Shown here one piece after another: positions 398 to 20,188 of a stretch of 64,000 nucleotides of DNA. Source of the stretch: a virus (Duplodnaviria; Heunggongvirae; Uroviricota; Caudoviricetes); the IMG/VR virus record IMGVR_UViG_3300005253_000530. The stretch is one strand, 5' to 3'. The notes under the pieces are model-generated. The model was not told the origin of the DNA, did not search any database, and was given only the letters and a program-made list of their open reading frames with translations. Made by a program: the position numbers and the translations under genes. Every line of letters starts with the position of its first letter. Position 1 is the first letter of the stretch.

Positions 398-469
398 AGC
401 CGCTACGAGGACTCGAACCCCGTTCAGAGGTTTACAAAACCCCCGCTCTACCAGGTGAGCTATAGCGGC
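398..469 (-). tRNA. tRNA-Thr (anticodon UGU)
   Basis: Minus-strand cloverleaf GCCGCTA/TAGCGGC acceptor, D-arm TAGCTCACCTGGTAGAGC, anticodon stem GGGGU/ACCUC with loop UUUGUAA, T-arm CGGGG-TTCGAGT-CCTCG; read by eye. Confidence 0.75.
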
Positions 470-888: not shown

Positions 889-971
889 TGCCGATAGAGG
901 GAGTCGAACCCACACGCTTGTTAGGCACTGGTTTCTAGGACCAGCGTGTCTACCAATTCCACCACATCGGC
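889..971 (-). tRNA. tRNA-Leu (anticodon UAG), long variable arm
   Basis: GCCGATG acceptor, GGAATTGGTAGAC D-arm like bacterial tRNA-Leu, anticodon stem CUGGU/ACCAG loop CCUAGAA (C at position 33 is unusual), long variable arm, T-arm GGGTTCGACTCCC. Confidence 0.65.
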
Positions 972-1844
972 TAAATTTTTATTTATACATATCTTTCAGT
1001 TTTTTTAATAGTTTATCATCCTCCATACAATAGGGAGCGTTGAACGGCGTCATGACATTTAATAATAGTTGTACAAGTCTAAGATCGGGATTCTTGTTCC
1101 ATATTCTTTCTATTTCTTTTAGTATCTCTGGTATTCTTTTTGGATCTCTCATTTTTGATCCCCTTAGCTGACATAATTATTTCATCATAATTTTTATCAT
1201 CCGCTATTGCACCAGCAAATTCTCCGCCGATGTCTTCCATCCAATCTCCAAGATCTCCATCCCACATAGTGTTAAAAATATTGTCTTTTTTGTTTCCTTT
1301 TTTACCCACTATAGTTATGTTTACTTTTTTGATCGACATTTTAATTCTCCTTCATTTGAAACTTATTAAACCATTCTTCCAGTGTGTATATAGTTGGTGG
1401 AGATTCAAGCGGCGGGCATCTACCAGGACTAAACATACAGTCGCTAAATTCATGGTAGTAATCGTGAGATGCGAATCTAAGACCCATGAACATGAAATAA
1501 CCTCCTCTATCATACATAGTGCCACGGTTTTTGTAGATAGCTTTTGCCAGCTTCATAAAATCATATAAGCATTTCTTTTTTGATTTATATTCCAGTGGAA
1601 CAGTCATCTGTTCTTTGTGCCCGCCATCAACAACTGTACACCTCATTACTAGTTTCATAATTCTCCTTTATATACCCAGTAGCTTGTTCAATTTTTTAAT
1701 AGCATAATCATATTGACTTACATTTGCTGAGTATTCTGGATTCATAGATCCCATCATGTTTGCACCGTGTATTGCGTCCTTCTTTTCTTTCTTTATTTCA
1801 CGGATCATTGCTAATATCTTCTTTTCCATTTATAATCCTTCCTT

Positions 1845-1917
1845 TGCCAGCTCACGGAATCGAACCATATCCTTGGGTACTTCACGCCCTTATGCGGACC
1901 ACCTACACCAAGCTGGC
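1845..1917 (-). tRNA. atypical tRNA-like gene (good acceptor and T-arm, non-canonical D and anticodon arms; possibly Phe-GAA-like or pseudogene)
   Basis: Acceptor GCCAGCT/AGCTGGC perfect, U8, G18G19 present, T-arm UAUGG-TTCGATT-CCGUG; but D-stem does not pair and anticodon arm forms only GGG/CCC with a 9-nt loop CGUGAAGUA. Confidence 0.35.
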
Positions 1918-1925
1918 TTACATGT

Positions 1926-1999
1926 TCGGAGTAGTAGGATTCGAACCTACGGCCCTCGCGCCCCAAACGCGATGCGCTACCCGACTGCGCTATACTCCG
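1926..1999 (-). tRNA. tRNA-Pro (anticodon UGG)
   Basis: Acceptor CGGAGTA/TACTCCG, D-arm GCGC-AGTCGGGTA-GCGC, anticodon stem TCGCG/CGCGA loop UUUGGGG, T-arm GTAGG-TTCGAAT-CCTAC. Confidence 0.75.
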
Positions 2000-2007
2000 T
2001 TTATTTA

Positions 2008-2085
2008 TGGTCGGGGCGGTAGGATTCGAACCTACGGCCCTCGCGCTCCAGACGCGATGCTCTGCGCAGACTGAGCTACACCCCG
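2008..2085 (-). tRNA. tRNA-Pro-like (UGG) tandem paralog, genomically encoded CCA, atypical D- and anticodon loops
   Basis: Same anticodon stem and T-arm as the neighbouring Pro gene; loop UCUGGAG (C33); D-loop lacks GG; 3' end CGCCCCG-A-CCA encoded. Confidence 0.5.
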
Positions 2086-2856
2086 TTATATTTAACAACC
2101 ATCACCTAAATCTTTAGGATCTATACCATCCTCCCAATGATTATGATGTATGAATTCTATTTCATTTATTCTATGCCCGCCCACTCTATTGTAATCAAAT
2201 CCACCATCAACAAAGGTCTCAGCTGGGCAGCCACAACTTTGAAAATCATGACGGTACATTGAGTGTAATACTTTTTTACACGCTGGACATTTTATTTTTC
2301 CGCCTATAATAATTCTCCTTCCATTTTTTACTCATATTTTTACCACGATGCTCCAGCAGGATATTGTAAATAACATCCACATAGCGGGCATTCTACTTCA
2401 GTTATACTTTGCTCAATATTAAACTCAGTCTTACATTTTTCACAGCATATTTTTGTGCCTCCTGGAATATCATCAACAAAAAGCATATCTCTAACAAAAA
2501 GTATGTTTGGTTTGGTGTTTACTTTATTTGGTAGTCGAGATATTTTAACTTCATCGTGAGCAGATGGGGTTGCTTTTGACATAGCTTCATCAAATGTTGC
2601 AGCTTCCACATACCATGTTCTAACAACTTTAAGTTTAGCCATCCTAATTCTCCTTTTGTCTAGGTTTTTAATAGCTGTATTCTTTGGCAGTTGGCATTTT
2701 CCAAAAGATCAATGATCTCTTCTAGTGCTCTTACTTCTACTGTAGTTACGTCTGTGCCTAATATAGGCATAGCCACGCTTTCCATTTTTATCTCGTTCCT
2801 AATTTTTTCTGACATACTTTTTAATAATTCGATTCTATGCACTGTAATTCCTCCTT

Positions 2857-2929
2857 TGCTCCGACCGGGAATTGAACCCAGCTTTCTGCCTTGAGAGGGC
2901 AGTGTCCTAAACCGATAGACGACCAGAGC
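2857..2929 (-). tRNA. tRNA-Glu (anticodon CUC)
   Basis: Strong resemblance to bacterial tRNA-Glu (TCGTCTA...GGACAC, anticodon stem CTGCC/GGCAG loop CUCUCAA, T-arm CTGGG-TTCAATT-CCCGG). Confidence 0.7.
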
Positions 2930-3340
2930 TTACGATTTTTCAAGACTGCCCTGCAATCTTTGTATTACATGGACAAATCTTCTGTGCATACCATTAAGGG
3001 CTGATTTATACTCAGCGTCAGAATTGTAGTGATTATCTGCATTTAAGCATTTATCTAAGTGTAAGTCTGTGCAAGCTGAATCAAACAATTCTTTGAATCG
3101 TTTTTCTTCTATTTGTATAACTTTCATTTTAATTCTCCTTATAGACCATGCTCTTTTTACATATTGGGCACTCACTCAGTATTTTTTCACAGTTATCGCA
3201 GTCGCCGTGTTCGTCGCTATATGTGTACCCCGCTCCTTGATCCTCATCACAGTAACAATCTGAGACTTCCATCTTATGGTCATTGCCACAATTAACGCAT
3301 GTAATATCAAGAAGTCCTACTGACATGATAATCCTCCTTT

Positions 3341-3366
3341 TGCTCCGACCGATAGACGACCAGAGC
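3341..3366 (-). pseudogene. tRNA-Glu remnant (5' and 3' ends of the 2857..2929 gene joined, about 48 nt internal deletion)
   Basis: tgctccgacc|gatagacgaccagagc matches both ends of the tRNA-Glu(CUC) gene; the upstream RBS/gene-start context (aatcctcctttgctccgacc) is duplicated with it. Confidence 0.6.
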
Positions 3367-3658
3367 TTAATAAATCTTTTACTTTTACCAAATATTTGTT
3401 TCTTCTACATAAAGAACACTTCTAACGGGGATAAGTCTGTCACATGGGTCATCTCCTCCTGTTCCCCATTTTCCTATGACAAAAAAGCCTTGTTTACCCC
3501 ATCCCACTATTTCAACAGGGTCTATATTCCAATTGCGAGACCACTTGCTGCGTCCCCGCGCTTTATGTTTATCGTCAAAATATTGATATCCACAGTTATG
3601 CCTGTTTACCTCTACTTTTTCCCCGTTTATTAGTGTTAGCTTCATAATAATTCTCCTT

Positions 3659-3730
3659 TGCTTCCAGAGGGTATCGATCCCACTTCTGCGGGGTGAAGGC
3701 CCGCTATCCTAGCCAGTAGACGATGGAAGC
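3659..3730 (-). tRNA. tRNA-Glu (anticodon UUC)
   Basis: Acceptor GCTTCCA/TGGAAGC, Glu-type D-arm TCGTCTACTGGCTAGGA, anticodon stem GCGGG/CCCGC loop CCUUCAC, T-arm GTGGG-ATCGATA-CCCTC. Confidence 0.65.
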
Positions 3731-4131
3731 ATCTACTATATAAATGCTATACATATTAATGCGGCTATTATACTAATACCTATAAGTATAACAAGAACGT
3801 CATCAAATCCAAGTTTTCTTGGTTTATCCAATTCGTGAAAAAATCTATAATCTTCTGGATATATCATAATTTCTCCAATAAAAAAGGGATTCAGATTGTC
3901 TCTGAACCCCTTGGTGTTTTCTATGTTTCGTTTGTTTTATCCGGGATGTGGATCCGGATCCACCAAGGGATTTCCAATATGATTATCACGTTCTCTGAGC
4001 AAACTGGTGGCGGGCGTCCCTGTATATATAAATGAGACGGATAAACAACTCGGTTTTTGTTGCCTTAGTATGCTCGAAAACATTGTATCCTCCTTGGTTT
4101 AGTTGGTATTAATTTAGTATTGGTATATTAT

Positions 4132-5262: not shown

Positions 5263-6075
5263 TTAACCTTCCAGACCAGGAAATATTCTATTCTGATCAG
5301 TGTATTTTTGTATTCTCTTTATGGATCTGTTTGTATAGTCCTCACTAAGTTCGAAGCCTATCCATTGTCTTTCTAAAATTTCTGCTGCCAAACAAGTGGT
5401 TCCCATTCCTGAAAAGATATCTAATACTGTGTCTCCTTTGTAAGATAGCTGTTGTATAAGCCTCTTAGGTAGTTCTATCGGGAACATAGCAGGATGTTCA
5501 TACAGTTCATTCATACGAGATTCAGGAGCAAATTCCCATAAAGCCAGGCTATACTCAATAAACTCTTCCTTACTCACGGTTATATTTTCTTTCCGACCTG
5601 ATTTTTTTTGGCTTCCGTTACAAAATATCAGTATGTATTCAAAAGGGGTTGGAAATGAGGGATTGGATGGTGACTTCCAGCTACCCCACGCTGTTCTATT
5701 TCCTATCTGATTTTTGTTCCATATAATTACGGTCTTTATCAAATACCCCAACTCTTTTGTCATAAACTGAATGATATCTGTATGTGTAGGCACCGCCCCA
5801 TTTTTTCCGTCACCTATGTTTATGCATACTCTGCCGCCCTCTACCATTTTTGGCTTTAGAATGGCAAATATATTACATAGCCATCGTATATATTCTTGAT
5901 GATCTAAGTTATCGTTGTAAAGATCATATGGATTTTTATTGTACTTATTTTTTCCCAGATCTACATTATAAGGGGGACTACAAATAGTTATATCTATAGA
6001 TTCATCTGGTAGTTTGGGGATTAACTCTAAACAATCTCCACAGTGTATTTTATTTATCCAGTTTTGTATCGACAT
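5263..6075 (-). CDS. DNA methyltransferase, beta class (N4-cytosine or N6-adenine)
   Basis: Motif IV SPPY near N-terminus and motif I FSGMGTT near C-terminus (IV...I order). Confidence 0.8.
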   Translation of the reverse strand: MSIQNWINKIHCGDCLELIPKLPDESIDITICSPPYNVDLGKNKYNKNPYDLYNDNLDHQEYIRWLCNIFAILKPKMVEGGRVCINIGDGKNGAVPTHTDIIQFMTKELGYLIKTVIIWNKNQIGNRTAWGSWKSPSNPSFPTPFEYILIFCNGSQKKSGRKENITVSKEEFIEYSLALWEFAPESRMNELYEHPAMFPIELPKRLIQQLSYKGDTVLDIFSGMGTTCLAAEILERQWIGFELSEDYTNRSIKRIQKYTDQNRIFPGLEG

Positions 6076-6950
6076 TATATATATCTACCTCTTTTATCAC
6101 GATTTCTTTGTGCAGTGCCCCAATAGTATTCTAGATATTTGTTATCTATTAGATAATTAAATTTTTTATTCTTTCTTTCCATAAATATAGATGCATCTCT
6201 ATAAATATAATGGTAGAATGAAAGTATATTTTTTTTGCGTGTTAGAATAACATACCACAATTTATTTTTTGCTTTCTTATTCATATAGGGGGTGATTTGG
6301 CAGCCCTCCATACCTTCTCTTACTAGTATTTCTTTTATAAAAGACATAACACTTTTTGTACCAGCTATATTTAATATCGGAGCTGGATATTTAGATCTTT
6401 TTTGATACACAATAGATATACTACCGTCGCCATCAAAATATCCTCTTATAAAATGCTTTTGTAAGTTTACTGGTAATATTGTATCTTCTGGAAATGATAG
6501 TATCAAGGACTTTCTTGGCATACATCCTTTTGATATCAACGCTTTTACTAGTTTTTTGCTACCAATTTCTATTTGATATACATTAGTATTTTTAACAGGC
6601 TTAAATGGGTAATTTGAATTAAGACATTCATTAAATTTTATAAATATATCTTTGTCTCTTTTATGTTGTTTAAATGATAATGAATGGCTTGTGTCTTTTC
6701 TGATTCTTACACACCCATCAGCATATAAAAATCCTAGCCAATATGCTTTATGTTCTGTATTTATAGTTTCAAAATAAGTTTCATCTATTTCATATATTCT
6801 GGATGTATTCATCTCTATTTGATTTGAATACAATATTCTTCTGATAGGTGTTATAGATGTCTCTAGTATTTTGGCTACTTTGCGTAATGATCTACATTCA
6901 TTATATAATTTTATGACCTGCTTTTTATTCAATTCTATTATGGATGGCAT
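6075..6950 (-). CDS. LAGLIDADG homing endonuclease (two-motif, free-standing)
   Basis: Two LAGLIDADG motifs WLGFLYADGCV and FIRGYFDGDGSI; stop overlaps MTase start (TAATG). Confidence 0.8.
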   Translation of the reverse strand: MPSIIELNKKQVIKLYNECRSLRKVAKILETSITPIRRILYSNQIEMNTSRIYEIDETYFETINTEHKAYWLGFLYADGCVRIRKDTSHSLSFKQHKRDKDIFIKFNECLNSNYPFKPVKNTNVYQIEIGSKKLVKALISKGCMPRKSLILSFPEDTILPVNLQKHFIRGYFDGDGSISIVYQKRSKYPAPILNIAGTKSVMSFIKEILVREGMEGCQITPYMNKKAKNKLWYVILTRKKNILSFYHYIYRDASIFMERKNKKFNYLIDNKYLEYYWGTAQRNRDKRGRYI

Positions 6951-7700: not shown

Positions 7701-8102
7701 TTATAATTTTCGAGTGAATCCTTTGAGAAAAAAATCTCGGTTAGAATTATCGCAAGTACAGTTTGTGCTGTTCTTTATAACTGTTGCGACATTTCCACCT
7801 TCGATATATCTCTTTGTTAAATATCTATATTGTGACCACGATCTGCCACAATCTTTGCAGTACCAATCGAGTTCGTATCTATATCTGATATCTGTTGAAG
7901 AGATTGGTGTAGCTAGTTTCATTTCTGCGTGACGAACTACTGTCTTTGCTTTATGACATGTTGTACATGTATCCCCGACATGGTGTCTAATATTTTTTTC
8001 ATATACTTTTTCTATTTTTTCATGTAGTCCATAAACAGAATAACTTCCTGTTTTACCACATCCGTTACATATATATTGTACTATCATATCTTTTATTATC
8101 AC
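7701..8102 (-). CDS. Cys-rich zinc-finger protein, hypothetical
   Basis: CNGCGK, CTTCHK, CKDCGR motifs. Confidence 0.5.
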   Translation of the reverse strand: MIIKDMIVQYICNGCGKTGSYSVYGLHEKIEKVYEKNIRHHVGDTCTTCHKAKTVVRHAEMKLATPISSTDIRYRYELDWYCKDCGRSWSQYRYLTKRYIEGGNVATVIKNSTNCTCDNSNRDFFLKGFTRKL

Positions 8103-8449
8103 GGTAGGTCTTCCTTGCTCATATATGCTTCTGATTCTTTCATAGCATCTATTTCATGTTGCACTTCTTCCATATCATCTTTCATTTGTCTGCGAGCTTT
8201 AGCTGTAGCAATGTGCTTTCTTATTGTGTTGACTACGTGATTAAACAACTTTGGATTACCATTATAGAATAACCTGAGGTTTACATCATCTATTTTTTCT
8301 GGATTTACTTCTATGTTCTCAAGCTTTTCATCTACTAATCCTGATTCTTCTTCTCTAATAGATTCTTCAGCAAACCCCATGATACCACCCAATATTGCAG
8401 CATCTTGTATATCGAAGTCTCCATCATTATCAAAATCTAAGAAGCTCAT
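8099..8449 (-). CDS. acidic hypothetical protein
   Basis: 116-aa ORF, start overlaps upstream gene. Confidence 0.45.
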   Translation of the reverse strand: MSFLDFDNDGDFDIQDAAILGGIMGFAEESIREEESGLVDEKLENIEVNPEKIDDVNLRLFYNGNPKLFNHVVNTIRKHIATAKARRQMKDDMEEVQHEIDAMKESEAYMSKEDLP

Positions 8450-9422
8450 GATACTCTCCTATTATTTTCGGTGGGGCTATTTCGAACTTGACGATTAAGG
8501 TACGTTGCTTTTCCCTACTATAATTTCAGTACTTCCCTTCACCCGTACGCCCATGTTCACGCTTATCCCCAAACGCTTTAAAAAATATAAATATCCCGCC
8601 CCTAGCCCACTCGATCTCAATCCATGACACCACTCAATCAAATCAACGAGCTGCTACCCTCATTGGAATGAAACAGCACATACTAACGGCAAGTTACCCC
8701 GCTTTCTAGTATTAAGGTGTCGAATCATTATTGACTAAAATTTATTTAGGGACGCTCCTAGTCGTTATACAATAGATCATCGGTAGCGATAATAGAAAAC
8801 CGTTAGGTGTTCCGCACGATATCCTCCCAATTGTAAATACGTCCATCTTATATCTAATTTATTGTTTTACCTACATCTATAATGTTCAAATCACGGACAA
8901 CTCTCATTAAATCATCTTTTTCCTTTACTTTCATCACGAGATCTTCAGCCTTTGCAAGAATCATGGTAAGTATTTCTACTCGTCTATGAGATTCTAAAGC
9001 TTTAGAACACATTTGATGTTCAGGATTCCATAAGTCACAATAGTTTAAGGCACATTTATCACCCTTCATGGCTACACAAATTCCACTTCCATCCATAGCT
9101 TGCTCCTTACCAACTTACGCTGATTAAATAGTTTCCTGCTGGAATCTCTCCTTTTTTACATAAGTAACACAGCAGCATTCCAGTTTCATGGCAATCCCAT
9201 TTTTTTATTTCGAGCACTTTTTCCATCTCCTCTTCGTCCCACTTGTCTAACTCAGGCTCAACAGTTATACTCTTTTCCGAATCATTACTCATCTCCTCGG
9301 CTGCGACAAACTCATATTTTGGATCAAAACTGAATCTTTCCGTGAGAAACTCATCTAAGTCCCAACAGCTCACCTCAAGATACTTTTTTGTAGTTATTTT
9401 TAGCTTCATACTACTTTTCTCC

Positions 9423-10790
9423 CTATTTCAGTGCTGTGGATAAATATTTAGACACTTCCTCTATAAGAACGTCTCTTTGGTTCATCGATTGATCCTCTAT
9501 TACTATAGATAATAAATAGTTTAGTATATGACCTATAGTAGGACCAGGCTTCAAATTGAATTCTTCTATGAGTACGGTGCCATCTATATTCAGATCTTTA
9601 ACATGTAGCACTCTAGATTGATTATAGACTTGTTTTATACGTTTCTCAAAAGATATTTGTCTCGGTGATATTTCACTGAGATTTAGACCATTTGCTGCTC
9701 TGTCAGCTTTTCTTAGTAAAAATACTGGCATACGGCTTAGCTTTTTTATTTCTTTGTTCGAGATATGTATTTTAGCTATAAATCTGCGAACTGCTGCATC
9801 TGACCACCTATTAGGCTCATAGTTGTACATATGATTATATATTAGGTCAGATACTACTAATGCCATTTCTTTGTCGAATTTTAACCTTCTTAGTATGCGC
9901 CTCGCCATTTTTGCGCCGGTGACTTCATGATTATAGAACGTTACTTTATATTTGCCTCCTCTTACAACCTCTTCTCTTACCTGTGGCTTGCCGACATCAT
10001 GTAATAAAGCTGCTAATCTCAATACCAAGTCTCTTTCGGCATTACCACAAGCTGTTAAGCAATGAGTTAATACATCATATTTATGATATTTCCTGTTTTG
10101 TGTTACCCCGTCACATATACTTAGTTCAGGTATGATCATATGCATAAGACCTGAGTCGTGCATTGTTCTCAGATATTTTGAAGGCTTTTGGCTCATAACT
10201 ATTTTTATGAACTCAAATTTTATTCTATTTATAGATACTTTCTTTACTAATGCATGGTTTGATTTAATCGCATAAAATAAATTGCTATCTATTCTGTAAT
10301 TGAGGTGTGCTGCCAGCGACAGAGTTTCCATCATAATAGCTGGATTTTGTTTCGTAACTAGATCTGCCTTTCCAATGACTTTAATTTTTCTGTTCCGAAT
10401 ATCGTTTCGACCACGATAAATGTCTATAAGACCTTTTGGGCCTTTTGATGCTATAGGTAGATACATCGCATTTACTGTAAATGCCTTTTCTTTTGCATCC
10501 TCCTTTAATGTGAAATATGGACTATATTTACCTCTTTTCTTTGGATTCCGTATAATGAAATTTATGTCATCTGTGGAAAACGAGATACATCCCTTTAACT
10601 TCTCTATTTTTAGATTTTTACGATGCCGGCGTAAATATTTTGATACTGTTTGTAATGATATTTGTCTTACTACTATCTCTATTTTGGTGGACTTTTTTCG
10701 CCTCACAAGATTACAAACGTATCTGCCTGCATAATATATTTCAGCCGGAGTCTCCTTGTTTAGTTTCTTCAGTATTGATATTATTTTCAT
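9423..10790 (-). CDS. CCA-adding-enzyme/poly(A)-polymerase family protein with HD domain; head-domain catalytic motifs degenerate
   Basis: Class-II NTase body motifs FTVNAMYL, DIYRGRNDIRNRKIKVIG, ETLSLAAHLNYRID and HD motif LLHDVGKP; but GGxxRD...DxD replaced by AGRYVCN...KIEIV. Confidence 0.65.
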   Translation of the reverse strand: MKIISILKKLNKETPAEIYYAGRYVCNLVRRKKSTKIEIVVRQISLQTVSKYLRRHRKNLKIEKLKGCISFSTDDINFIIRNPKKRGKYSPYFTLKEDAKEKAFTVNAMYLPIASKGPKGLIDIYRGRNDIRNRKIKVIGKADLVTKQNPAIMMETLSLAAHLNYRIDSNLFYAIKSNHALVKKVSINRIKFEFIKIVMSQKPSKYLRTMHDSGLMHMIIPELSICDGVTQNRKYHKYDVLTHCLTACGNAERDLVLRLAALLHDVGKPQVREEVVRGGKYKVTFYNHEVTGAKMARRILRRLKFDKEMALVVSDLIYNHMYNYEPNRWSDAAVRRFIAKIHISNKEIKKLSRMPVFLLRKADRAANGLNLSEISPRQISFEKRIKQVYNQSRVLHVKDLNIDGTVLIEEFNLKPGPTIGHILNYLLSIVIEDQSMNQRDVLIEEVSKYLSTALK

Positions 10791-11604
10791 GTTTTATACG
10801 CGCTCCGTATTTTTTCACAAGTAAATCTTTCAGATTTTGTATTCTTATATGTAAAGTTGATGCTTCCACACCAAATGGGCCGCTTAGCTCTCTTTCAGTT
10901 TCTCCACCTACATAATGTCTGTACAATAGGTCGTAATCTTCCTCTGATAGACTTTCTTTTATTTCTTTCACAAACACAATGTTGGAGAAGGCTGAATCAT
11001 CTGTTGTGGCTGTTGCGGCTATGGTGTCCAGATTGGTATAAATTATTTCAGGAAAGGATACTGGAGAGAGCTCCGCACGCTCTAATAATTGTATAACTGA
11101 AGTATGAGATCTGTCAGCTAAATTTTGAATACTTTGCTGTATTCTGATAACATCCTCCATAAGAGATTCTTTGTTTTTTGGAGGATTGTCCTTATAATAT
11201 TCGGAAGCTGTCCATATATCTACAAAAGTTAACCGTCTAAGACCATCCATTTTTTCTAGAACTTTTTGTAGTGATTCTGTTAGATTTGCTGCATTCTTTA
11301 CATATTGAGGTATCTTTATATTGCTCCCTTGCGTGGTTATGTACTCACGAAGAGCGTCCTTGATTTTATAAATAGCATAAATTCTAAACTTCTCACTTCT
11401 TTCCCGCTCGAAATCTCTATAGGCTCTCGCCAAGCCGATTAGACCCTCCTGGCGCAGGTCTTCCTTGTCTACACCGGTAATAGCTGAAAGTTTATTTGAT
11501 AGAAAGCTGATGTCTTTCTCGTATTTTTTTAATAACTGTTCGGCCTGCTCCTTAGTATCTGCGAGAAAGTGCTTACTAAAAACTTCACCGTCACGTATTG
11601 GCAT
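10741..11604 (-). CDS. sigma-70 family RNA polymerase sigma factor
   Basis: Region 2 DLRQEGLIGLARAYRDFERERSEKFRIYAIYKIKDALREYI and region-4-like C-terminus. Confidence 0.8.
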   Translation of the reverse strand: MPIRDGEVFSKHFLADTKEQAEQLLKKYEKDISFLSNKLSAITGVDKEDLRQEGLIGLARAYRDFERERSEKFRIYAIYKIKDALREYITTQGSNIKIPQYVKNAANLTESLQKVLEKMDGLRRLTFVDIWTASEYYKDNPPKNKESLMEDVIRIQQSIQNLADRSHTSVIQLLERAELSPVSFPEIIYTNLDTIAATATTDDSAFSNIVFVKEIKESLSEEDYDLLYRHYVGGETERELSGPFGVEASTLHIRIQNLKDLLVKKYGARIKHENNINTEETKQGDSG

Positions 11605-12081
11605 GTTAACTCTCCTTTAGTTAAGTTGTCCTTTTATATTTGCTATAGTATTTAATATCTATAAATCATTTTTATGTTAGCCTGCCTCCTTTCTGCAACA
11701 TATCATATATAATACCGGAATAAATCAATTCTTCTCGTTCTGTCAATGGATATTTGTTAAATTTCTGTGCATTTAGGGGTGCTTCTAGTATTTGTAGGTT
11801 ATCTTGATGGTGTAAGCCCCCTTTACTAAGAGGAAGAATATGATCTATAACATATTTTTCTTTTTCAAGCTGTGTTCCTTTTTTTGTTCCGAATTATTAA
11901 TATAATATTTACTATTATACTCTGGATTATTTTGGTGCCATTGCTTCACATATTTACTTCTACAGTGCCTACACTACGAATTCCTGCGGCCCTTACTTTT
12001 ATTCCGCCAACTAAATTCCTCTATATCCTTTTCCTTTTCACACTTAGTACATATTTTTCTCGTCATGGTATATTATTAATA

Positions 12082-13125
12082 TTACATCTCCCTATCAAAA
12101 TTTCTTGGAATATCTACATAATCTCTTTTTATGGTTGATTTTATATGTCCATTATCGAGTAAATATTTTCTACCTTGGTCTGTTATTTTCCTTCCTTTTG
12201 GTGCTCGAAGAATTAGCCCTCGTTGTATAAGATATGGCTCCATAGTTTCAGATATAACTTTTGGTGACTCATTCAGTCGTACAGCTATGTTATCCAGCCC
12301 TATAGGATCTTCAACTTCGTACATCATTTTTAGCATACTAATATCTGTACTATTTAGACCGGTTTTATCAATTCCAAGCTCGCTGAATGTTACTATAGCT
12401 ACATCAGAGGTGACAGCCTCCCGATCAATAGCTGCAGCCATATCTCTACACCTTTCAAGTAAGCTGACCACAACCCTTGGTACTCCTCTGCCTCTCTTTG
12501 CGATTTCCAGTGCAGCTTTCTCGCTTATTTTCATTTTTAACCGCTCTGCATGTACAATAGCTATTTGTATAGACTCTTCTTGTGAATATGGCGTGAATAC
12601 AAATCGCATTTTAAATCTATCTCTAAACGGCTTACTTAACTTGCCGTCATTTGTAGTAGCACCTATTAGTGTAAATGCAGGGCTCCATCGTGTTCTTTCT
12701 GTAGCATCATTAAAAATGTCCAGTGGATCAGATTTCATTTCTCGACTAGTTACTGGTATATACCATTCTTCCATTAATACGCCCATATGTTCTTGGCCAG
12801 CCAGTGACAGGTTGTGTATTTCATCTATAAATATTATATTATGCCGGATACACTTGTCTTTCAGTTTTTTGCCGTATATATCATACCCAGTTCGATCGAA
12901 CTCTTCCACTATCTGTAATAGATCGGATCTACCTTTAATAGAATCACAGGCCACACTCGCAAATTTACCACTAGTTATATCGGCGATATATTTGGATGTA
13001 CTAGTTTTTCCACACCCAGCAGCTCCGCTCATGAGCATATGTGGTATTGATCTGTTTTCTTTGATAGCGGATTTTATAGCAATGTCTATCTGTACAAGAA
13101 TACCTTTATTACCAATCAATTTCAC
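12082..13125 (-). CDS. ruvB: RuvB-like AAA+ ATPase (Holliday-junction branch-migration helicase family)
   Basis: Walker A LMSGAAGCGKTS, Walker B IIFIDEIHNL, C-terminal winged helix ISETMEPYLIQRGLILRAPKGRKIT matching RuvB EPYLIQ..RTPRGR; GTG start with GAGGT RBS. Confidence 0.75.
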   Translation of the reverse strand: MKLIGNKGILVQIDIAIKSAIKENRSIPHMLMSGAAGCGKTSTSKYIADITSGKFASVACDSIKGRSDLLQIVEEFDRTGYDIYGKKLKDKCIRHNIIFIDEIHNLSLAGQEHMGVLMEEWYIPVTSREMKSDPLDIFNDATERTRWSPAFTLIGATTNDGKLSKPFRDRFKMRFVFTPYSQEESIQIAIVHAERLKMKISEKAALEIAKRGRGVPRVVVSLLERCRDMAAAIDREAVTSDVAIVTFSELGIDKTGLNSTDISMLKMMYEVEDPIGLDNIAVRLNESPKVISETMEPYLIQRGLILRAPKGRKITDQGRKYLLDNGHIKSTIKRDYVDIPRNFDREM

Positions 13126-13168
13126 GTAAGTACCTCACTTTTTTAGAATTCTACATATATTATAGAAT

Positions 13169-13197
13169 AATATAGACATTTTGCTAGCTTGTGTCAA
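13169..13197 (-). promoter_or_regulatory. sigma-70-like promoter upstream of ruvB-like gene (TTGACA-N17-TATATT on minus strand)
   Basis: -35 TTGACA at 13197..13192, 17-nt spacer, -10 TATATT at 13174..13169, about 40 nt upstream of start codon. Confidence 0.4.
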
Positions 13198-13209
13198 GTA
13201 AAAAATTCA

Positions 13210-14004
13210 TTATAATCCTGCGTATCCGCTATATCCATATACTTCTTCCATATGAGCTTGGTCCGTAGTTTCAGATTTGTCCCCTTTTTTTTCTCCTTCT
13301 TTTGGTTCTTTATCTGCTGGTATTTCAGCAAGTTTTGGAGCTTTGTAAGTACCCTCTTTAATAGCCTCTATCTTTGTTTTCATTCTCTCAATAGCACTAG
13401 ATATTGGATATTTTGTTGTTCTTCTTATCACAAAAGTTTCTATTTCTTTTTTCTTGTAGGTAGTGATAGGCCTATTATGATACGGAGCACCAGAATAAGC
13501 ATGGTTTACAGGGTTATAGGTTGCAGCTTTGCTAGTAGTTTTGTTAGCAGGTTTGTACGTAGGTTTTATATCGTCCTCTACTAGTTTCTTTGTCGCCTCT
13601 GGTACATTCGTATAACCATCTGTATCAATAAGTCCATTAGGGCGTAGCATATCGTACTCTTTTAGGGCTTCCTGGACACACGTCAGTCTTTCAATGTTCA
13701 CTTCTTCTTTATAGGCAGAATATTTAGTGTAAGAGCCATTTATATTGATTTCCATAAACTTGATCTCGTAATGGCTGAGATTTAGCATTTGAACTTCTTC
13801 ACCCTTCATCAGCCATACGAAAAGATCATTTTTATTGACCAATTGAACATTGATATCAACTAATCCACGCAAACCGAGGAAATACCCGGCAATTACTGGG
13901 CCTTTCTTGTCGGCTTTCGCCGTAAGCCCAACCACCACATATTTGATACCCTTAAGTTTCTCTGTTGTGAATGCTTTTTCTGTGACCATTTTTTCTCCTC
14001 GCAA
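13210..14004 (-). CDS. hypothetical protein
   Basis: 264-aa ORF in operon between ruvB-like and GNAT genes. Confidence 0.5.
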   Translation of the reverse strand: MRGEKMVTEKAFTTEKLKGIKYVVVGLTAKADKKGPVIAGYFLGLRGLVDINVQLVNKNDLFVWLMKGEEVQMLNLSHYEIKFMEININGSYTKYSAYKEEVNIERLTCVQEALKEYDMLRPNGLIDTDGYTNVPEATKKLVEDDIKPTYKPANKTTSKAATYNPVNHAYSGAPYHNRPITTYKKKEIETFVIRRTTKYPISSAIERMKTKIEAIKEGTYKAPKLAEIPADKEPKEGEKKGDKSETTDQAHMEEVYGYSGYAGL

Positions 14005-14404
14005 ATATTATAATATGTCTACCACGACCCCATCTTTTCCCTATAGGTCTCATACCTACCCGTAAATTATTCCTTATATTCGTGTGATTATCACTACCAA
14101 CAGCACCATATACAAATTCAGTAGTAGCCGCTTGAATGCCTTTTTCAAGTAGTTTTTTACCTAGTCCTCTTCTTCTATAATTAGGATGAACGCATAGGTG
14201 CTTGAGCTCAGTCGTAAGGCCATATTGCTCAAGCCCTATCACGCCCGTTATTATTTCTCCATCTAATTCTATTAGATATTTTACTGGACTAAGAAGTATT
14301 GAACTTTCGTTCAGTCGGGCCCATAGCTGATCTCCAGCATTGATCATATCTGCTATCTGTACAGCTATGTTCCTGGCACCGACTGTTAGTACAAATTTAC
14401 TCAT
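13952..14404 (-). CDS. GNAT family N-acetyltransferase
   Basis: Acetyl-CoA-binding motif LCVHPNYRRRGLGKKLLEKG. Confidence 0.75.
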   Translation of the reverse strand: MSKFVLTVGARNIAVQIADMINAGDQLWARLNESSILLSPVKYLIELDGEIITGVIGLEQYGLTTELKHLCVHPNYRRRGLGKKLLEKGIQAATTEFVYGAVGSDNHTNIRNNLRVGMRPIGKRWGRGRHIIIFARRKNGHRKSIHNRET

Positions 14405-14408
14405 TTAC

Positions 14409-15494
14409 TCACATGTCTCCCCTCATTAAGGCGGCTATTACGGCTTGTGCTTCTTCATCATTACGAACATTACGCATAACTCTGGTCATACCGCCATTAG
14501 GAGCCTCATCTGCTACTGCTGCACCAACCGCTCGGCCCCGTCTTGCTGCAGGCGCCGGTCTTGCTGCAGGACGTTCTTCTCTAGCAGGAGCCTCAATTTC
14601 ATTGATCTTGGCCCGGAATGCTTCCACATATTTCTGTAAAGCTGTTCCTTGTAGACCGGGGCCGCTGTTGATCTCGATAAGATAAGGGTTATTGTCCAAT
14701 CCAATTGCGCAATCGACCGCACCAAAGTCCAAACCGGTAACTTCTACGGACTTTATGGCCATAGCCTTCAATGCGTCTGAAACATTATTTAACGTGACGC
14801 CGGAAAACTTCCATCCCCTTTTGTTGCTTCGGACTATACGATCTGGCAGTTCAGCTTCCTTCACTAACAGGCTAAGAACATAATTCAAAGTGGATTCATC
14901 CAGATTTTGATTATTTTTCTGTGCATAATCTAGCACTTTTTCTTTACGCTGTGCGATCCAGCCGGCATCGGTCGGGTTTTCAACCTTCTTTACTGCATAT
15001 ATAACCTGACCAAAAGCCACATGGAGCCGATATTCGTCTTTGATGTCAATATAGTTCTGAAAATACTGGGCACCGTCATGAATGGCTCTTTCAACATGTT
15101 GCTTATTTAAACATGTCCAGAATCCTTTACCGCCCTGGTGAAAATTTGTGCGACCAACAAGCGGCAATTTGATGTCACTTCTCCGCCGGTCCATTGCAGC
15201 TATGACCTCATCAGCTCCGCAAAAGGCTGAGATAGCCGGTTTTGTCGCTCGATTTCCATACAAAGATGTCAATGTACTCATTTTGTTCCGGTTGTTTCGA
15301 ATTTTATCCGGGTGATTAAGTATGGTTGCGTTATCCAAACGTACAGCCGCATCTGTCTTGGCTCCCCATCCGATTATGATATCACCATTTTGGATACTCC
15401 GGGGCTTTGACTTTGTACCAGTTAATCCCAATGCGTCCGCTAAAGCCTGGCCGGTTACATCAGTTGCTCCACTAAACCAAATATATTTTGACAT
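14409..15494 (-). CDS. ATP-grasp ligase (RimK/alpha-L-glutamate-ligase-like) with GC-rich Ala/Arg/Pro-rich C-terminal tail
   Basis: ATP-grasp motifs EYRLHVAFGQV, GLDFGAVDCAIGLDNNPYLIEINSGPGLQG; last about 60 aa PAREERPAARPAPAARRGRAVGAAVADEAPNGG encoded by locally GC-rich DNA. Confidence 0.75.
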   Translation of the reverse strand: MSKYIWFSGATDVTGQALADALGLTGTKSKPRSIQNGDIIIGWGAKTDAAVRLDNATILNHPDKIRNNRNKMSTLTSLYGNRATKPAISAFCGADEVIAAMDRRRSDIKLPLVGRTNFHQGGKGFWTCLNKQHVERAIHDGAQYFQNYIDIKDEYRLHVAFGQVIYAVKKVENPTDAGWIAQRKEKVLDYAQKNNQNLDESTLNYVLSLLVKEAELPDRIVRSNKRGWKFSGVTLNNVSDALKAMAIKSVEVTGLDFGAVDCAIGLDNNPYLIEINSGPGLQGTALQKYVEAFRAKINEIEAPAREERPAARPAPAARRGRAVGAAVADEAPNGGMTRVMRNVRNDEEAQAVIAALMRGDM

Positions 15495-15764
15495 GTTATT
15501 TCTCCTTATTTTAATAGGTTAAAATCCCTTTCTACTCCACTCCTCCTATTTAGCTACCACCGTGTCTATACTGACAGGCGCTGTGACAACCGCTGTTATC
15601 TCGTCTTTTGCTGGGTTTGCAGTCATGGTGACAAAAGACTGACTATTAGGAAAGCTATAGCGTGCCTCAATATACTCTGCTATAGCCTGCAAGATATTAT
15701 CGTTCGTCAAAGTAAATATAGATTTCTCTTTATTGCCTAATAGTTCCATGTTATTCCCCCCTTG

Positions 15765-17108
15765 TTATATTATGAAATTACTATTACCAACCCATGTGTG
15801 CTTCAATCCTTTCTCCCTTTCATTCAGCACATTCTGAGGTAATCTAACTACCTCTATAAATTTATCTATATAATCAGCATACTCTCTGTATGTCTGTAAT
15901 GACCTGTATCTTGACTTTAGCTCATCGAAATAACTTTTTCTGAATTCTATTTCCCATTTATGTAATATATTTTGCATAGCTCCAGAGCTAGAAGTAGTAT
16001 TAAATGCCTTTGTAATTTCTATATTCTTCCATTGATCAAAAGACATATCGAAGAAAGTCAAATCAGTGTGGGCATACCAATCATCGGTCTCTTGGTGTTC
16101 TTCGGTCATAATCAAAGAATGCTTAAAATTACCATCTTCTAAGGCTCTAAAATATGCGTGAGCTATAGCTTTTACTGTGCCTATGACTATTCTGGCCAGT
16201 TCTGGATGAGTTAACCACTCACCACTTAAAGTACGATACTCTAATCTATTATGATCAGTCTTGTGATCTCCAAAGCGACCAAATGACTTTCTACGCTTCA
16301 TTCCATTCTTTTTACCATCAAGCTTCATCATTGGTACAGCTACATAATCGTCTAATATTCTTTGTAGACACGCGTACACTGCGTGTGAGTAATTACTACC
16401 AAATGAACTTATCTTTTGAGCTAAATTTGCTGGTGTCCCTAAATGTATGTGGCCTCCAACAGGCCAGTCCCTTCGACTGTTGTCAGGATCCGCACCCGAT
16501 TCATGCCCAGAATGGTTACACCCACCGACCCATTCATACAGAGCTATTAACTTTGTATTAGGGTGATTTGTTAGTATGCCATGTATATTACTTACAAAAT
16601 CTTCTACTAGTATCGCAGGCTTTGGCCTTAGTTCAGCCAATGGCCCGTCTGATCCGAGCTCGTCATTATGACTCAGATTATTTACTTTTGATGCATACAT
16701 TATGTTACCATCCTTATTAAATAACATAAACTCAGGGTCACCGCCTACTACTGTGTCCTCAACTGTATCTGCTAACCATATATTCTCTTTACTCCCGCTA
16801 CCGTTCTTACAGACATAGCTAAATATAGTAGAAGTTACAAAACCAACCCTTTCAAAATCGTCAGCACTCATAGATTCTTTAGCTTTTTTTAGATCTGAAG
16901 AGTAAGCTTGGAATATTTCGAGACTTTTACTTCTGTTTATTCGTCCATTTGTATCAGTATTAGGCCATACCTCTACAACTTTTTCATCAGCTAGCCCAAG
17001 ATTTTCTCTAGCTTTTACTCCTAGTCTGATCAGACCGTTTTCATTCCTATCATTCTTTCTGTTGGAATCCATTCGGTCTGATATGACTAATATTAATGGA
17101 GCTTTCAT
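15765..17108 (-). CDS. GCS2/glutamine-synthetase-like carboxylate-amine ligase (amidoligase), paralog B
   Basis: GGDPEFMLFNKDGN ... GSDGPLAELRPKP ... GGHIHLG; shared with 22726..23928 and 41042..42268. Confidence 0.6.
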   Translation of the reverse strand: MKAPLILVISDRMDSNRKNDRNENGLIRLGVKARENLGLADEKVVEVWPNTDTNGRINRSKSLEIFQAYSSDLKKAKESMSADDFERVGFVTSTIFSYVCKNGSGSKENIWLADTVEDTVVGGDPEFMLFNKDGNIMYASKVNNLSHNDELGSDGPLAELRPKPAILVEDFVSNIHGILTNHPNTKLIALYEWVGGCNHSGHESGADPDNSRRDWPVGGHIHLGTPANLAQKISSFGSNYSHAVYACLQRILDDYVAVPMMKLDGKKNGMKRRKSFGRFGDHKTDHNRLEYRTLSGEWLTHPELARIVIGTVKAIAHAYFRALEDGNFKHSLIMTEEHQETDDWYAHTDLTFFDMSFDQWKNIEITKAFNTTSSSGAMQNILHKWEIEFRKSYFDELKSRYRSLQTYREYADYIDKFIEVVRLPQNVLNEREKGLKHTWVGNSNFII

Positions 17109-17120
17109 ACGTCATCCCTC

Positions 17121-18944
17121 CTAACTTTTTGTTTCTTTTGCTTTCTTAATGACTTCTTTTACCTCTTTAATCATTTCTTGTTCTCGGGTATTAAATACTT
17201 CTGCTATTTTATCCATGTTCACTGAAATGTCACTTCCAGACACTGCGTTAAACAGTCTGGCTCTTGCACTAAGATTTTGGCCCTTTCCATTGCTAATACT
17301 TGAAGTCACATCATAGAATTTTGCAAGTGCTAGAACCATAGACTTCAATCCAGCTATATGACTTTCTCTGCGTTTAGATTTCTCGTCGTCAGCTGAAGAT
17401 GGGCCTTCTGATTTTTTCATAGCTGTTTCATATCCGGCCATGAACCCGTCCTTCCAGTTGATATTGAATGCTCTGTTGGCTACCATAACTATGCCAAGCT
17501 GTTCGGCTTTCTTCTCATTTTGAATATCTATAGCAGAAATAAGATCTTCCATGTTCCCATATCCCTTTTTATCTATAGGCATGTCAGTATATGCATTAGT
17601 AGCAGCTTCTATAATCTCTTTGGGATATTGCTTCATGTTAACTTCAGTTACTTTGATATCTTTTTCATCTATATCTATGACTTCATCATCTGATCCTTTA
17701 TTCTCAGTATATGTTGTTTTGTCATCGATATCCACCGAAGAGTCACTATCTTTTTGCTCAATAGTATCCTTGTCTCCATCATCAGTGTCTGATTTTTTAT
17801 TAGCTATTATCATTGCTGTTGTAGTAGATCCAGTGGTTGTATTCTTTACTGTTTTGACCTCGTCAGTATCTACAGATATAGCAGCAGACTCGTCATCTTG
17901 TATTTCAGTATCTCCAATTTTTACTACATACTTTTTCGTAATCTTATCAAATACTCTACGTGTTGGTTCTTCCTTTTTCTCATCGGGTTTATTATAAGAG
18001 TACGGCTTACCGTAATTTTTACCGGTGCTATATGTCGTAGCAGTTGTAGCTATCCATATTTTGCTACTTCGCTCTATTTTACTCCACTCACCTAGGTCAT
18101 CAATGGTAGTATCTTCTGTAACCTGCTGAGTCAAATCAAATATCATAGCGGAATCATCTGGCAGACTTTTCTTTTCAACAAGCTTTTTATTGAGAAAGGT
18201 TGGTAGATCCGAACCACAAAGCTCAGGATAATATCTAGGCCATCTTACATATCTGAAATGTATTTTATTCCAGAACTTTTCTTCAGATATTATTAGTAAT
18301 ATACCGTATTCTTTCAGCAGCACAAATTCTACAGGGCGACTATCACGAAATATTGGTACTTGATATGGGTTATCAGCATTGAACAGGGAGATTGCAAACT
18401 GACCATCTAGTCTATTTACTATATTTTGTATCATATTCATAGTAAATGGCTCTTTGCCACAGTTCGTGTAATGATCAAATAGCCTGAATATTGCTTCACT
18501 GTCTACTTTTCCATCTCGTTTGCATCCAAGCTTTTTGAATATTTCATCTGGATTCCTAATCACTCCATTATGAATGCCTATTAAATTACCAATTTTGATA
18601 GGGTGATTATTTTCATTGTCTTCTTTATCACCGGCTGTAGCAGCTCGACAATGTCCCAGAAAAATTCTACTAGGGGCTTTATGTTCTCTCCACACTTTTA
18701 ACAGGCTGCCGTACCATTCTTTCGATTCACCAAACATAGATAAGTAATCAGTGGCTCGTTGGCCTCTTTTTAATCCCATATATTTGCCATCATCGAACAA
18801 TATGGCTGCTCCTGTGGCATCTTTGCCTCTTTCTTCGGTGGCTATCAGCAGTTCGGTTGTGAAGTATTGCATTACCCCTTGCCTTACGATTTCGTCCTTT
18901 TCGCTTAATTTGCCGAATGCCAGTGCAACTACTATTCCGCACAT
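17121..18944 (-). CDS. class-II glutamine amidotransferase (Ntn, N-terminal Cys) with long low-complexity C-terminal extension
   Basis: MCGIVVALAFG N-terminus (catalytic Cys2), GHCRAATAG, Gn_AT_II-type core; Thr/Asp/Ser-rich linker then C-terminal domain. Confidence 0.7.
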   Translation of the reverse strand: MCGIVVALAFGKLSEKDEIVRQGVMQYFTTELLIATEERGKDATGAAILFDDGKYMGLKRGQRATDYLSMFGESKEWYGSLLKVWREHKAPSRIFLGHCRAATAGDKEDNENNHPIKIGNLIGIHNGVIRNPDEIFKKLGCKRDGKVDSEAIFRLFDHYTNCGKEPFTMNMIQNIVNRLDGQFAISLFNADNPYQVPIFRDSRPVEFVLLKEYGILLIISEEKFWNKIHFRYVRWPRYYPELCGSDLPTFLNKKLVEKKSLPDDSAMIFDLTQQVTEDTTIDDLGEWSKIERSSKIWIATTATTYSTGKNYGKPYSYNKPDEKKEEPTRRVFDKITKKYVVKIGDTEIQDDESAAISVDTDEVKTVKNTTTGSTTTAMIIANKKSDTDDGDKDTIEQKDSDSSVDIDDKTTYTENKGSDDEVIDIDEKDIKVTEVNMKQYPKEIIEAATNAYTDMPIDKKGYGNMEDLISAIDIQNEKKAEQLGIVMVANRAFNINWKDGFMAGYETAMKKSEGPSSADDEKSKRRESHIAGLKSMVLALAKFYDVTSSISNGKGQNLSARARLFNAVSGSDISVNMDKIAEVFNTREQEMIKEVKEVIKKAKETKS

Positions 18945-18946
18945 AT

Positions 18947-20188
18947 TTATACCTCCTCCTCTTCAAAAAGTTTCGTTTGTAAATAATCCGACCTACCCGT
19001 TACCTTCTCCTTTACGACTTTACTTTTGTTATTTTTGATATTTACATCATTCGGAATTTCTTTTGATATCTTATCCCTAACCAAGCTCATAGCTTTTGAT
19101 GAGCGCATGTCATGTGGTCTACGTATTGCTTCACCATCAATTGTAAACACATTTTCTTTAGATTTAGAAAACACAAATCTATAAGTGGCGGACTTCATTT
19201 TTGAGATTATGTCCTGCCCTTTAATTGACGAGTTTGTAATAAATACTTCCATACATATACCACTGGCTTTTTTAGAGTCAAATATTGGTAATACATCCCC
19301 TAATTCATAAAAGCTTATAGATACAATATCAGTTATTACTTTTACACGGTTGTGAGGATATTGAAAGAAACTTATATGGTGGGGATATGCTTTTGTCAAC
19401 ACACTATAAAAAGAATTTATATCCTCTAACATATACTTCAAGTTAGATGTACCGACTCCTGAAAATGTGTAGTTTATAAATCTATTACTTTGCAAGCGCT
19501 CAGATAATAGATCAGGGAAATTAGAAACATCAGAACTATTATGTACATCAGAAAGCCTATCTAATTCTGTATGTATGCCATTATCAAATATTAAAGGCAA
19601 TGATCCATCTATATAAAATTTTTTTGTATTTGTCGAATGGATGACATAGTCTATTGTAGCATTCCATATACTAAATGGAATAATAACATTTATATTATCT
19701 AAAGAGTTGGATAAAATGCTATTTGCTTTTGCCAAATCCTTTTTAGCTATGTGATATATATCTTTGGCTGTAGACTTCTTAGCTTCAGTGGGTATAGGCT
19801 TTTTAGGCTCAGGCTTTGAATTAGTTATTTTACCTGTAGTTATTTTACCTGTAATTGTTTTATTCGGAAGTCTTTCTTCATCCCCCCTTCCTTCGTAACA
19901 TGATAATCCTTCTACGTAACTGCGGACACCTCTATCACTTGTTGGTGATCTAGGCACAGGTCGACCAGATCCACTAGGTAAAATTGGTACCATTGTTGAC
20001 TTAGATAATTCCCAAGAATTATGTGAATTATTACGGCTAATTATACCATCATATACAACGAATGGTTGTATAATGGCAATACATGGAGTACCTACTGACA
20101 TATCGTCATATGTAGAAGTGGTGATACCGGCTATACAGTTATCTTCTGGATAAATTTCTTGTAAAAATTTTAGTTTCTCTACGTACAT
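18947..20188 (-). CDS. hypothetical protein in amidoligase operon
   Basis: 413-aa ORF, stop/start coupled to neighbours; ITGKITTGKIT short repeat. Confidence 0.5.
   Translation of the reverse strand: MYVEKLKFLQEIYPEDNCIAGITTSTYDDMSVGTPCIAIIQPFVVYDGIISRNNSHNSWELSKSTMVPILPSGSGRPVPRSPTSDRGVRSYVEGLSCYEGRGDEERLPNKTITGKITTGKITNSKPEPKKPIPTEAKKSTAKDIYHIAKKDLAKANSILSNSLDNINVIIPFSIWNATIDYVIHSTNTKKFYIDGSLPLIFDNGIHTELDRLSDVHNSSDVSNFPDLLSERLQSNRFINYTFSGVGTSNLKYMLEDINSFYSVLTKAYPHHISFFQYPHNRVKVITDIVSISFYELGDVLPIFDSKKASGICMEVFITNSSIKGQDIISKMKSATYRFVFSKSKENVFTIDGEAIRRPHDMRSSKAMSLVRDKISKEIPNDVNIKNNKSKVVKEKVTGRSDYLQTKLFEEEEV

Follow-up and report, generated by a model that had tools for sequence, protein, structure and literature searches.

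The 64,000-nucleotide (nt) stretch of DNA analyzed here, hereafter the window, is IMG/VR record IMGVR_UViG_3300005253_000530, and its source is a jumbo phage, large and uncultivated. It has a G+C content of 36.9%, and the ORFs examined in it lie on one strand. Two of these open reading frames (ORFs) encode homologs of class-II CCA-adding enzymes, which we refer to as ORF A and ORF B. A first-pass annotation had described the pair as one intact enzyme and one homolog that retains the HD motif but has a degenerate active site. This is what we observe, with both genes on the minus strand at the positions it gave (Table 1). The strings that it had read are also present, namely AGRYVCN, KIEIV, FTVNAMYL and DIYRGRNDIRNRKI in ORF A, and GGTPRD and DVDIAT in ORF B.

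ORF B carries motifs A, B and D, the third carboxylate, the flexible loop and the ERxxxE signature, all of which are invariant in its 31 orthologs. They can be read in its sequence as GGTPRD, DVDIAT, FEVAQFR, DGRRPD, RRDFTINA, EDHLRMIRAARF and PERIRVEIIK. Its best sequence match in the Protein Data Bank (PDB) is 1miv (E = 3e-41), and a protein from Loki's Castle sediment is 100% identical to it. The best NCBIfam match of ORF B, NF009814, scores 223 bits, under the equivalog cutoff of 290, so that ORF B belongs to this family by its motifs and not as a named equivalog.

Downstream of the head, both proteins match the Pfam domains PolyA_pol_RNAbd, HD and tRNA_NucTran2_2. In ORF A, PolyA_pol_RNAbd spans residues 164–223 (E = 1.2e-13) and tRNA_NucTran2_2 spans residues 295–445 (E = 1.1e-12), and its HD domain is recognized both by PF01966 (44.5 bits against a cutoff of 22) and by the HDIG model TIGR00277 (42.5 against 27.6). 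The PolyA_pol head model is covered in full by ORF B (positions 1–126 of 126, 98 bits), whereas ORF A matches only positions 73–125, at 30 bits against a cutoff of 23. The best NCBIfam match of ORF A is TIGR02692, the actinobacterial-type CCA/HD family, with 195 bits against a cutoff of 438.8 over model positions 114–457; its score for NF009814 (114.5 against 290) likewise stays below the cutoff of that curated family. The two proteins share 25% identity across residues 95–446 of ORF A.

Table 1. Coordinates and supporting evidence for ORF A, ORF B and other features of the window
Feature	Coordinates	Strand	Evidence
ORF A, CCA-enzyme-like, 455 residues	9423..10790	(-)	ORF call, Pfam, AlphaFold2, Foldseek, >110 full-length orthologs
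ORF A head, residues 1–140 (fold kept, catalytic residues lost)	10371..10790	(-)	hhalign, family counts, Pfam
ORF A neck/RNA-binding region, residues 141–225	10116..10370	(-)	PolyA_pol_RNAbd, hhalign
ORF A HD (HDIG-type) phosphohydrolase domain, residues 226–370	9681..10115	(-)	Pfam HD, TIGR00277
ORF A tail domain, residues 371–455	9426..9680	(-)	tRNA_NucTran2_2, conserved KPGPT(I/V)GHILNYLL
ORF B, complete class-II CCA-adding enzyme with HD domain, 456 residues	54822..56192	(-)	Pfam, 1miv match, invariant motifs
RlaP-family nucleotidyltransferase (RNA-ligase-associated Pol-beta)	52313..53200	(-)	tblastn, PF10127 (E = 1.3e-18)
Sigma-70-like factor	10741..11604	(-)	Sigma70_r2, TIGR02937, phrog_351
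RuvB-like AAA+ protein	12082..13125	(-)	domain match, synteny
Seven tRNA genes	397..3731	(-)	ARAGORN
HDIG hydrolase	38218..39015	(-)	domain match
Phosphoesterase	27749..28312	(-)	PHROGs only (phrog_547)
NUDIX protein ORF	37155..37709	(-)	NUDIX box 37443..37508

The head and HD domain of ORF A

To place the head residues of ORF A in register with those of ORF B, we aligned a profile of 36 A-type orthologs with one of 31 B-type orthologs using hhalign (probability 100). The GG of ORF B (G28-G29) falls opposite A21-G22 of ORF A, and its RD (R32-D33) opposite C26-N27. In motif A, from GG/RD to DxD, ORF A reads K36-I37-E38 against D42-V43-D44, so that K36 stands at the first Asp (D42) and E38 at the second (D44). 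The third carboxylate, E82 of ORF B (Bst E79), is replaced by I79; the RRD motif R113-R114-D115 by E101-K102-A103; and the EDxxR template E156-D157-H158-L159-R160 by Q148-N149-P150-A151-I152. A 9-residue deletion in ORF A faces the KDGRRPDSV loop of ORF B. E38 is therefore the only acid left in register; the remaining residues for catalysis and nucleotide templating have been substituted. Measured against the class-II CCA-adding enzymes, ORF A has the fold but neither motif A, the third carboxylate, motif B nor motif D. The first-pass annotation had recognized the substitutions in GGxxRD and DxD and had proposed an alignment to confirm them; the substitutions hold and E38 is the sole alternative acid in register, but the degeneration extends beyond motif A, to RRD, EDxxR, the flexible loop and the third carboxylate.

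The degenerate head is common to the more than 110 full-length orthologs of ORF A. Among the matches listed, A-type homologs form at least 120 clusters, nearly all full length (450–467 residues), with identities to ORF A from 88% down to 43%; residue counts given here come from 112 full-length members and column conservation from 36. At the position of the first Asp, 91 of the 112 have a non-acidic residue (Asn, Lys or Arg in 74) and 21 an acidic one, while 99 have Glu or Asp at that of the second. The family consensus has no conserved acid in the third-carboxylate column, and the first Arg of RRD is lost (R110 to Ser, Glu or Thr). EDxxR has become (R/K)(N/D)..(L/R/I/V): its Glu is replaced by Arg or Lys, its Asp (D154) is Asn in 59 and still Asp in 39 members, and its Arg (R157) is kept in 23. 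None of the catalytic positions of the head is conserved across these 112 orthologs, and the sub-clade to which ORF A itself belongs has additionally lost the RD of GGxxRD. On this evidence, ORF A is very probably polymerase-dead.

Conservation in the A family is concentrated elsewhere. The metal ligands of the HD domain (H243, H264-D265, H288, H320 and D363, together with H236 and D239) are invariant or at least 90% conserved, D363 being among the latter. The invariant columns of the family lie almost entirely in the HD domain and tail, and they include H236, D239, H243, H264, D265, K268, H288, E289, H320, M321, Y322, W329, R360 and R364. The ORF B family serves as an internal control, with overall divergence equal to that of the A family (mean column identity of 58% vs 57%). 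Here the head residues G28, G29, R32, D33, D42, D44, T47, R113, R114, D115, E156, D157, R160, R163 and R166 are all invariant. Mean pairwise identity in the A family is 35% in the N-terminal part of the head (residues 1–93), 45% in its C-terminal part and neck, 60% in the HD domain and 54% in the tail, compared with 55%, 58%, 54% and 44%, respectively, in the B family. In the A family, selection therefore focuses on the HD domain, with relaxed constraint on the catalytic head.

The HD ligands of the B family are also all invariant, which rules out a reciprocal degeneration in which A keeps the HD domain and B the polymerase. It also follows that the phage does not need ORF A just as a source of an HD domain. 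A conserved insertion, YNYEPxKWTDAAVRRFI, is found in the A-type HD domain and is absent from ORF B, so that the A-type domain may differ in specificity.

The AlphaFold2 model of ORF A, built with the family alignment, has no disordered segment (predicted local distance difference test score 91.3, predicted template modeling score 0.82). A Foldseek search of the PDB places the Aquifex aeolicus CC-adding enzyme at the top, both apo and with tRNA (3wfo–3wfs; 3wfr/3wfq), with E values of about 1e-16; this HD-bearing protein is the best PDB match of ORF A by sequence as well. The match to 1miv has an E value of 1.4e-14, alignments extend over about 430–460 columns, and the Bacillus, psychrophilic, Thermotoga and human CCA enzymes come next. 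From the model and these matches, the head of ORF A is predicted to have stayed folded as a Pol-beta-like domain that is now empty.

Relatives of ORF A at the same genomic position

We collected relatives of the gene in the ORF A slot by a profile search of 1.84 billion representatives and a third homolog search. Two further clades occupy this slot. The EDP clade (31 clusters, including P0249 at L012/L013) has GGxVRD..DxD, the third Glu, (R/H)RDFxxNAM and EDPxRMLR, and it looks like a working CCA enzyme. The ESP clade (36 clusters on contigs of up to 302 kb; P0243–P0247 and P0389–P0417, with P0243 on L011 and others on L018–L022) keeps GGxVRD..DxD intact, but Gln takes the place of the third Glu, the loop is missing, and EDxxR has given way to a conserved ESPIRMLR. 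Its members may be nucleotidyltransferases with altered nucleotide specificity rather than dead ones. In IMG/VR contigs of about 141–298 kb, a RuvB-like gene and a sigma gene are followed by a slot gene of the ESP or EDP type.

In neighbor-joining trees, which carry no support values, the dead clade is monophyletic whether the whole protein or only the neck, HD domain and tail are used. It falls beside or within the ESP clade, inside the EDP grade, and apart from both the cellular CCA/HD enzymes and the B family. Together, the positional orthologs and the trees place ORF A at the end of a degenerative series. ORF A descends from a phage clade related to the actinobacterial-type CCA/HD enzymes (TIGR02692), and ORF B comes from a separate CCA/HD lineage, closest to the Bacillus-type CCA enzymes. 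A recent duplication is ruled out by the 25% identity of the two proteins, their different PDB and NCBIfam relatives and their separate clades; of the "paralogs" of the first-pass annotation, the homology stands and the recent paralogy does not.

The window matches metagenome contigs from Loki's Castle marine sediment. A megablast search of positions 8000..20000 against GenBank phages gave no match, and tblastn of ORF A against phages returned only matches at or below 33% identity, with no near GenBank phage relative. No dead-type members were found in IMG/VR, where the matches listed include only three distant intact CCA/HD genes (L001–L003).

The combination of the two genes recurs outside the window. 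On scaffold_747 of ERZ23486238 (76,223 bp), about 36 kb separate an A-type gene (P0044) from a B-type gene (P0173) in the same orientation, and the local neighbors match those of the window: sigma before A and Band_7 before B. For three further A/B pairs, the longest contigs are equal in size (66,414, 76,726 and 38,448 bp). An exact-motif scan for the B-family motif FEVAQFRxDG found none in four large IMG/VR contigs with ESP or EDP slot genes, and a DNA pattern for PFRDRFKLRF gave 0 matches in the same co-occurrence test. These scans, which covered exact motifs and the matches listed, do no more than hint that ORF B accompanies only the dead form of the slot gene. Large contigs bearing B (270, 230 and 210 kb) are absent among the top 120 A-type matches listed, so that some relatives may carry B alone.

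Proposed function of ORF A

The E. coli multifunctional CCA addition/repair protein and M. tuberculosis Rv3907c (TIGR02692) have the same four-part architecture, fold and HDIG motif set as ORF A, which differs from them in lacking the first and third carboxylates, GG, RRD, EDxxR and the flexible loop. The CC-adding and A-adding pairs of some bacteria resemble ORF A and ORF B in placing two CCA-family proteins in one genome. Both partners of such split systems are active polymerases with intact carboxylates. ORF A and ORF B do not form a pair of this kind, as ORF A is without the catalytic set and ORF B has the full CCA-type motifs, including ERxxxE. The flexible-loop region is shortened in CC-adding enzymes (PMC10673834), and in this respect they are like ORF A.

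We lean, if modestly, toward a reading in which ORF A is a nucleotidyltransferase-dead but HD-active descendant of the CCA/HD enzymes, kept over the long term on a tRNA-binding scaffold for its HD phosphohydrolase. The protein would have lost nucleotidyl transfer and retained the HD domain on the class-II scaffold of head, neck, HD body and tail, while ORF B would add CCA to the phage tRNAs, most of which are encoded without it, and would carry out CCA repair. ORF A would bind a tRNA or a tRNA-like RNA end and hydrolyze a terminal phosphate ester, for which a 2′,3′-cyclic phosphate, a 2′- or 3′-phosphate or a related ester are candidates on the basis of the HD phosphoesterase activities of the E. 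coli and M. tuberculosis CCA enzymes (PMC10673834). In the M. tuberculosis enzyme, a member of the characterized family nearest to ORF A, the DLD57-59ALA mutation abolishes tRNA extension and leaves the HDIG metal-dependent phosphatase intact, and in the H298A mutant the phosphatase activity is lost (PMC10673834). The model of a polymerase-dead, HD-active protein follows from regarding ORF A as the natural equivalent of this DxD mutant. By this analogy the HD domain of ORF A is predicted, with good probability, to be active; we propose more tentatively that it acts on RNA, most plausibly on a phosphate ester at the tRNA 3′ terminus. The first-pass annotation had suggested that ORF A might work through its HD domain alone, and as far as sequence can tell this appears to be the best-supported reading. 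An HD activity, the tRNA 3′ end as its substrate and a role in repair or counter-defense are inferred; counter-defense would be a reasonable idea, if a speculative one.

A more specific history is rather doubtful. In it, a lineage of large phages from sediment and soil would have inherited a CCA/HD gene at a fixed locus after sigma. In one branch this gene would have ceded CCA addition to a foreign B and would have become a tRNA-targeted, polymerase-less HD phosphoesterase that heals or deliberately modifies 3′ ends. Such a protein could, for example, remove the cyclic or 3′-phosphates left by host tRNA-targeting immune nucleases.

Several observations speak against the HD-based, tRNA-directed role that we favor. 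HDIG domains are also found in nucleotide-signal hydrolases. The HDIG variant of the HD domain occurs in RNase Y as well (PMC10673834). The neighbors of ORF A (the sigma factor, the RuvB-like protein and the amidoligase module described below) give no pointer to tRNA, and with its own fully conserved HD domain, ORF B leaves a second one not obviously required. The acid at the position of E38 in 99 of the 112 orthologs, and the Arg and Asp of GGxxRD that persist in most of them, leave room for the head to bind metal or nucleotides to some residual degree. The trees that join ORF A to the ESP and EDP clades also have to be read without support values.

The diversity of HDIG domains is one of the grounds on which ORF A might instead act on a substrate other than tRNA, such as nucleotide second messengers, (p)ppGpp, Ap4A or other RNA as for RNase Y, its CCA-like scaffold being merely inherited and its role possibly tied to the phage transcription module. 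The gene always adjoins a sigma-like gene, sometimes overlapping it, one in-frame fusion of a sigma-like and a CCA-like protein (P0248) is known, and ORF B already supplies a CCA-linked HD domain. We nevertheless consider this unlikely on balance: the tRNA-binding architecture, including PolyA_pol_RNAbd and tRNA_NucTran2_2, is conserved and well folded, adjacency is weak evidence in a window with all genes on one strand, and the fusion, on a single 8-kb contig, could be a read-through error. The HD metal ligands, as the most conserved residues of the family, form the pattern expected of an enzyme and not of a passive binder, and this makes it decidedly unlikely that ORF A is a non-catalytic tRNA binder, be it a decoy or shield that keeps host nucleases off tRNA 3′ ends or a partner that regulates or scaffolds ORF B. 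A binder would account for a head fold, neck and tail that are kept without catalytic residues and for the co-occurrence of A with B, and dead paralogs act as regulatory or scaffolding partners for some other enzymes.

It is very improbable that ORF A is still a nucleotidyltransferase with non-canonical catalysis, for example through E38 and other acids. E38 is in register with the second Asp, where 99 of 112 orthologs have Glu or Asp, and about 20 are also acidic at the first position, but ORF A has Lys at the first Asp and Ile at the third carboxylate, no GG, RRD or EDxxR, and a deleted loop. Unlike the B family, the A family conserves no head catalytic position. In the M. tuberculosis enzyme, changing DxD to AxA is enough to abolish activity (PMC10673834). 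Drift toward loss as a pseudogene-like remnant might be read into the faster evolution of the head (35% pairwise identity) and the loss of the RD of GGxxRD in the sub-clade of ORF A. It is hardly credible for a family with more than 110 intact full-length orthologs of 450–467 residues down to 43% identity, strong conservation of HD domain and tail, fixed synteny and a high-confidence fold.

HD-bearing CCA-adding enzymes are textbook bifunctional enzymes whose HD half has a poorly defined role in vivo. A natural family in which the polymerase is deleted and the HD domain kept offers a clean handle on HD function, for which mutagenesis was needed in M. tuberculosis. One syntenic locus, moreover, shows a stepwise series from a canonical-looking enzyme through an altered template to a dead polymerase, and the second complete enzyme alongside raises the possibility that, in phage genomes, the older enzyme was displaced and then repurposed. 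Should the substrate be a damaged tRNA end, a healing step would be added to the phage repertoire of tRNA repair and counter-defense. Phage CCA enzymes and HD-bearing CCA enzymes are already known; the literature searched yielded no description of a conserved CCA-like family with a dead polymerase, of a degenerative series at one fixed locus, or of a large polymerase-dead, HD-intact family at a fixed phage locus with intermediates.

Gene neighborhoods and tRNA genes

The sigma-70-like gene lies directly upstream of ORF A, and this adjacency is kept in L004–L006, L009–L013, L016 and L018–L023. The longer string of genes that always precedes ORF A reads GATase, x, GATase, phiEco32-type COOH-NH2 ligase, ATP-grasp, GNAT, x, RuvB-like AAA+, sigma-70-like. 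It is seen in the window and in L004–L006, L009, L010 and L016, whose A-type proteins are only 46–58% identical to ORF A. The 3′ end of the sigma-like ORF overlaps the start of ORF A by 50 nt in a different frame (10741..10790). The same 50-nt overlap is present in L004, L005, L007, L008 and L009, and shorter ones occur in L006 (4 nt), L010 (38 nt) and L016 (41 nt), which suggests translational coupling. In P0248 (785 residues, on an 8,202-bp JGI contig), a sigma-70-like protein continues in frame into an ESP-type CCA-like/HD protein, with the junction running straight into the usual MKT start; this could be a real fusion that links both functions, or a read-through or sequencing artifact.

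Iyer et al. (2021, PMC7824862) count the CCA-adding enzymes of jumbo phages, like RNA ligase and RlaP, among the components of RNA repair. This view suits ORF B, which has an RlaP-family gene 1.6 kb downstream of it. In the 270-kb relative L014, RlaP lies 5.6 kb downstream of B, and in many unrelated IMG/VR phages (L147, L168, L146, L172–L177 and others) it stands directly beside the gene of an intact CCA-adding enzyme. The 97-kb contig L006 carries an RNA ligase (PF09414) and RlaP at 17051..18938, about 6 kb downstream of its A-type gene; a tblastn search of the window for a homolog of this RNA ligase found none, and of the two only RlaP was detected. About 0.9 kb upstream of ORF B lies a gene for an SPFH/Band_7 protein (57072..57953), as is also the case in the 270-kb and 76-kb relatives (L014 and L017).

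Of the seven tRNA genes in the window, only the second tRNA-Pro gene (2008..2085) has an encoded 3′ CCA; the other six end without it. The two tRNA-Pro(TGG) genes, at 1926..1999 and 2008..2085, are 8 nt apart. The first-pass annotation had grouped the tRNA array, the HDIG hydrolase, the phosphoesterase and the NUDIX protein with the two CCA-enzyme homologs as a toolkit for tRNA 3′-end repair. The genes it named exist, but they do not cluster: they are spread over the 64 kb of a one-strand genome among replication, transcription and amidoligase genes, and we saw no conserved linkage with ORF A or ORF B. Only RlaP, which that annotation did not include, is near ORF B.

The amidoligase module comprises a GNAT protein (13952..14404), an ATP-grasp protein (14409..15494), phiEco32-type COOH-NH2 ligases (15765..17108, 22726..23928 and 41042..42268) and GATase-domain proteins (17121..18944 and 20201..21130). 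Its gene order is identical in all related contigs examined, and its probable function is the hypermodification of peptides or bases. A DNA N6/N4 methyltransferase gene (5263..6075) is preceded in the window by a LAGLIDADG endonuclease ORF (6075..6950). In L006, a single 636-residue protein (14253..16163) has methyltransferase, LAGLIDADG and methyltransferase matches in succession, which points to a homing endonuclease that is intein-like or inserted in one genome and split or free-standing in the other. A protein of 1163 residues (29513..33004) matches Rpb2 domain 6 (residues 397–533) and Rpb1 domain 2 (residues 796–885), and is a fused beta/beta′-like, single-chain RNA polymerase of the multisubunit type.

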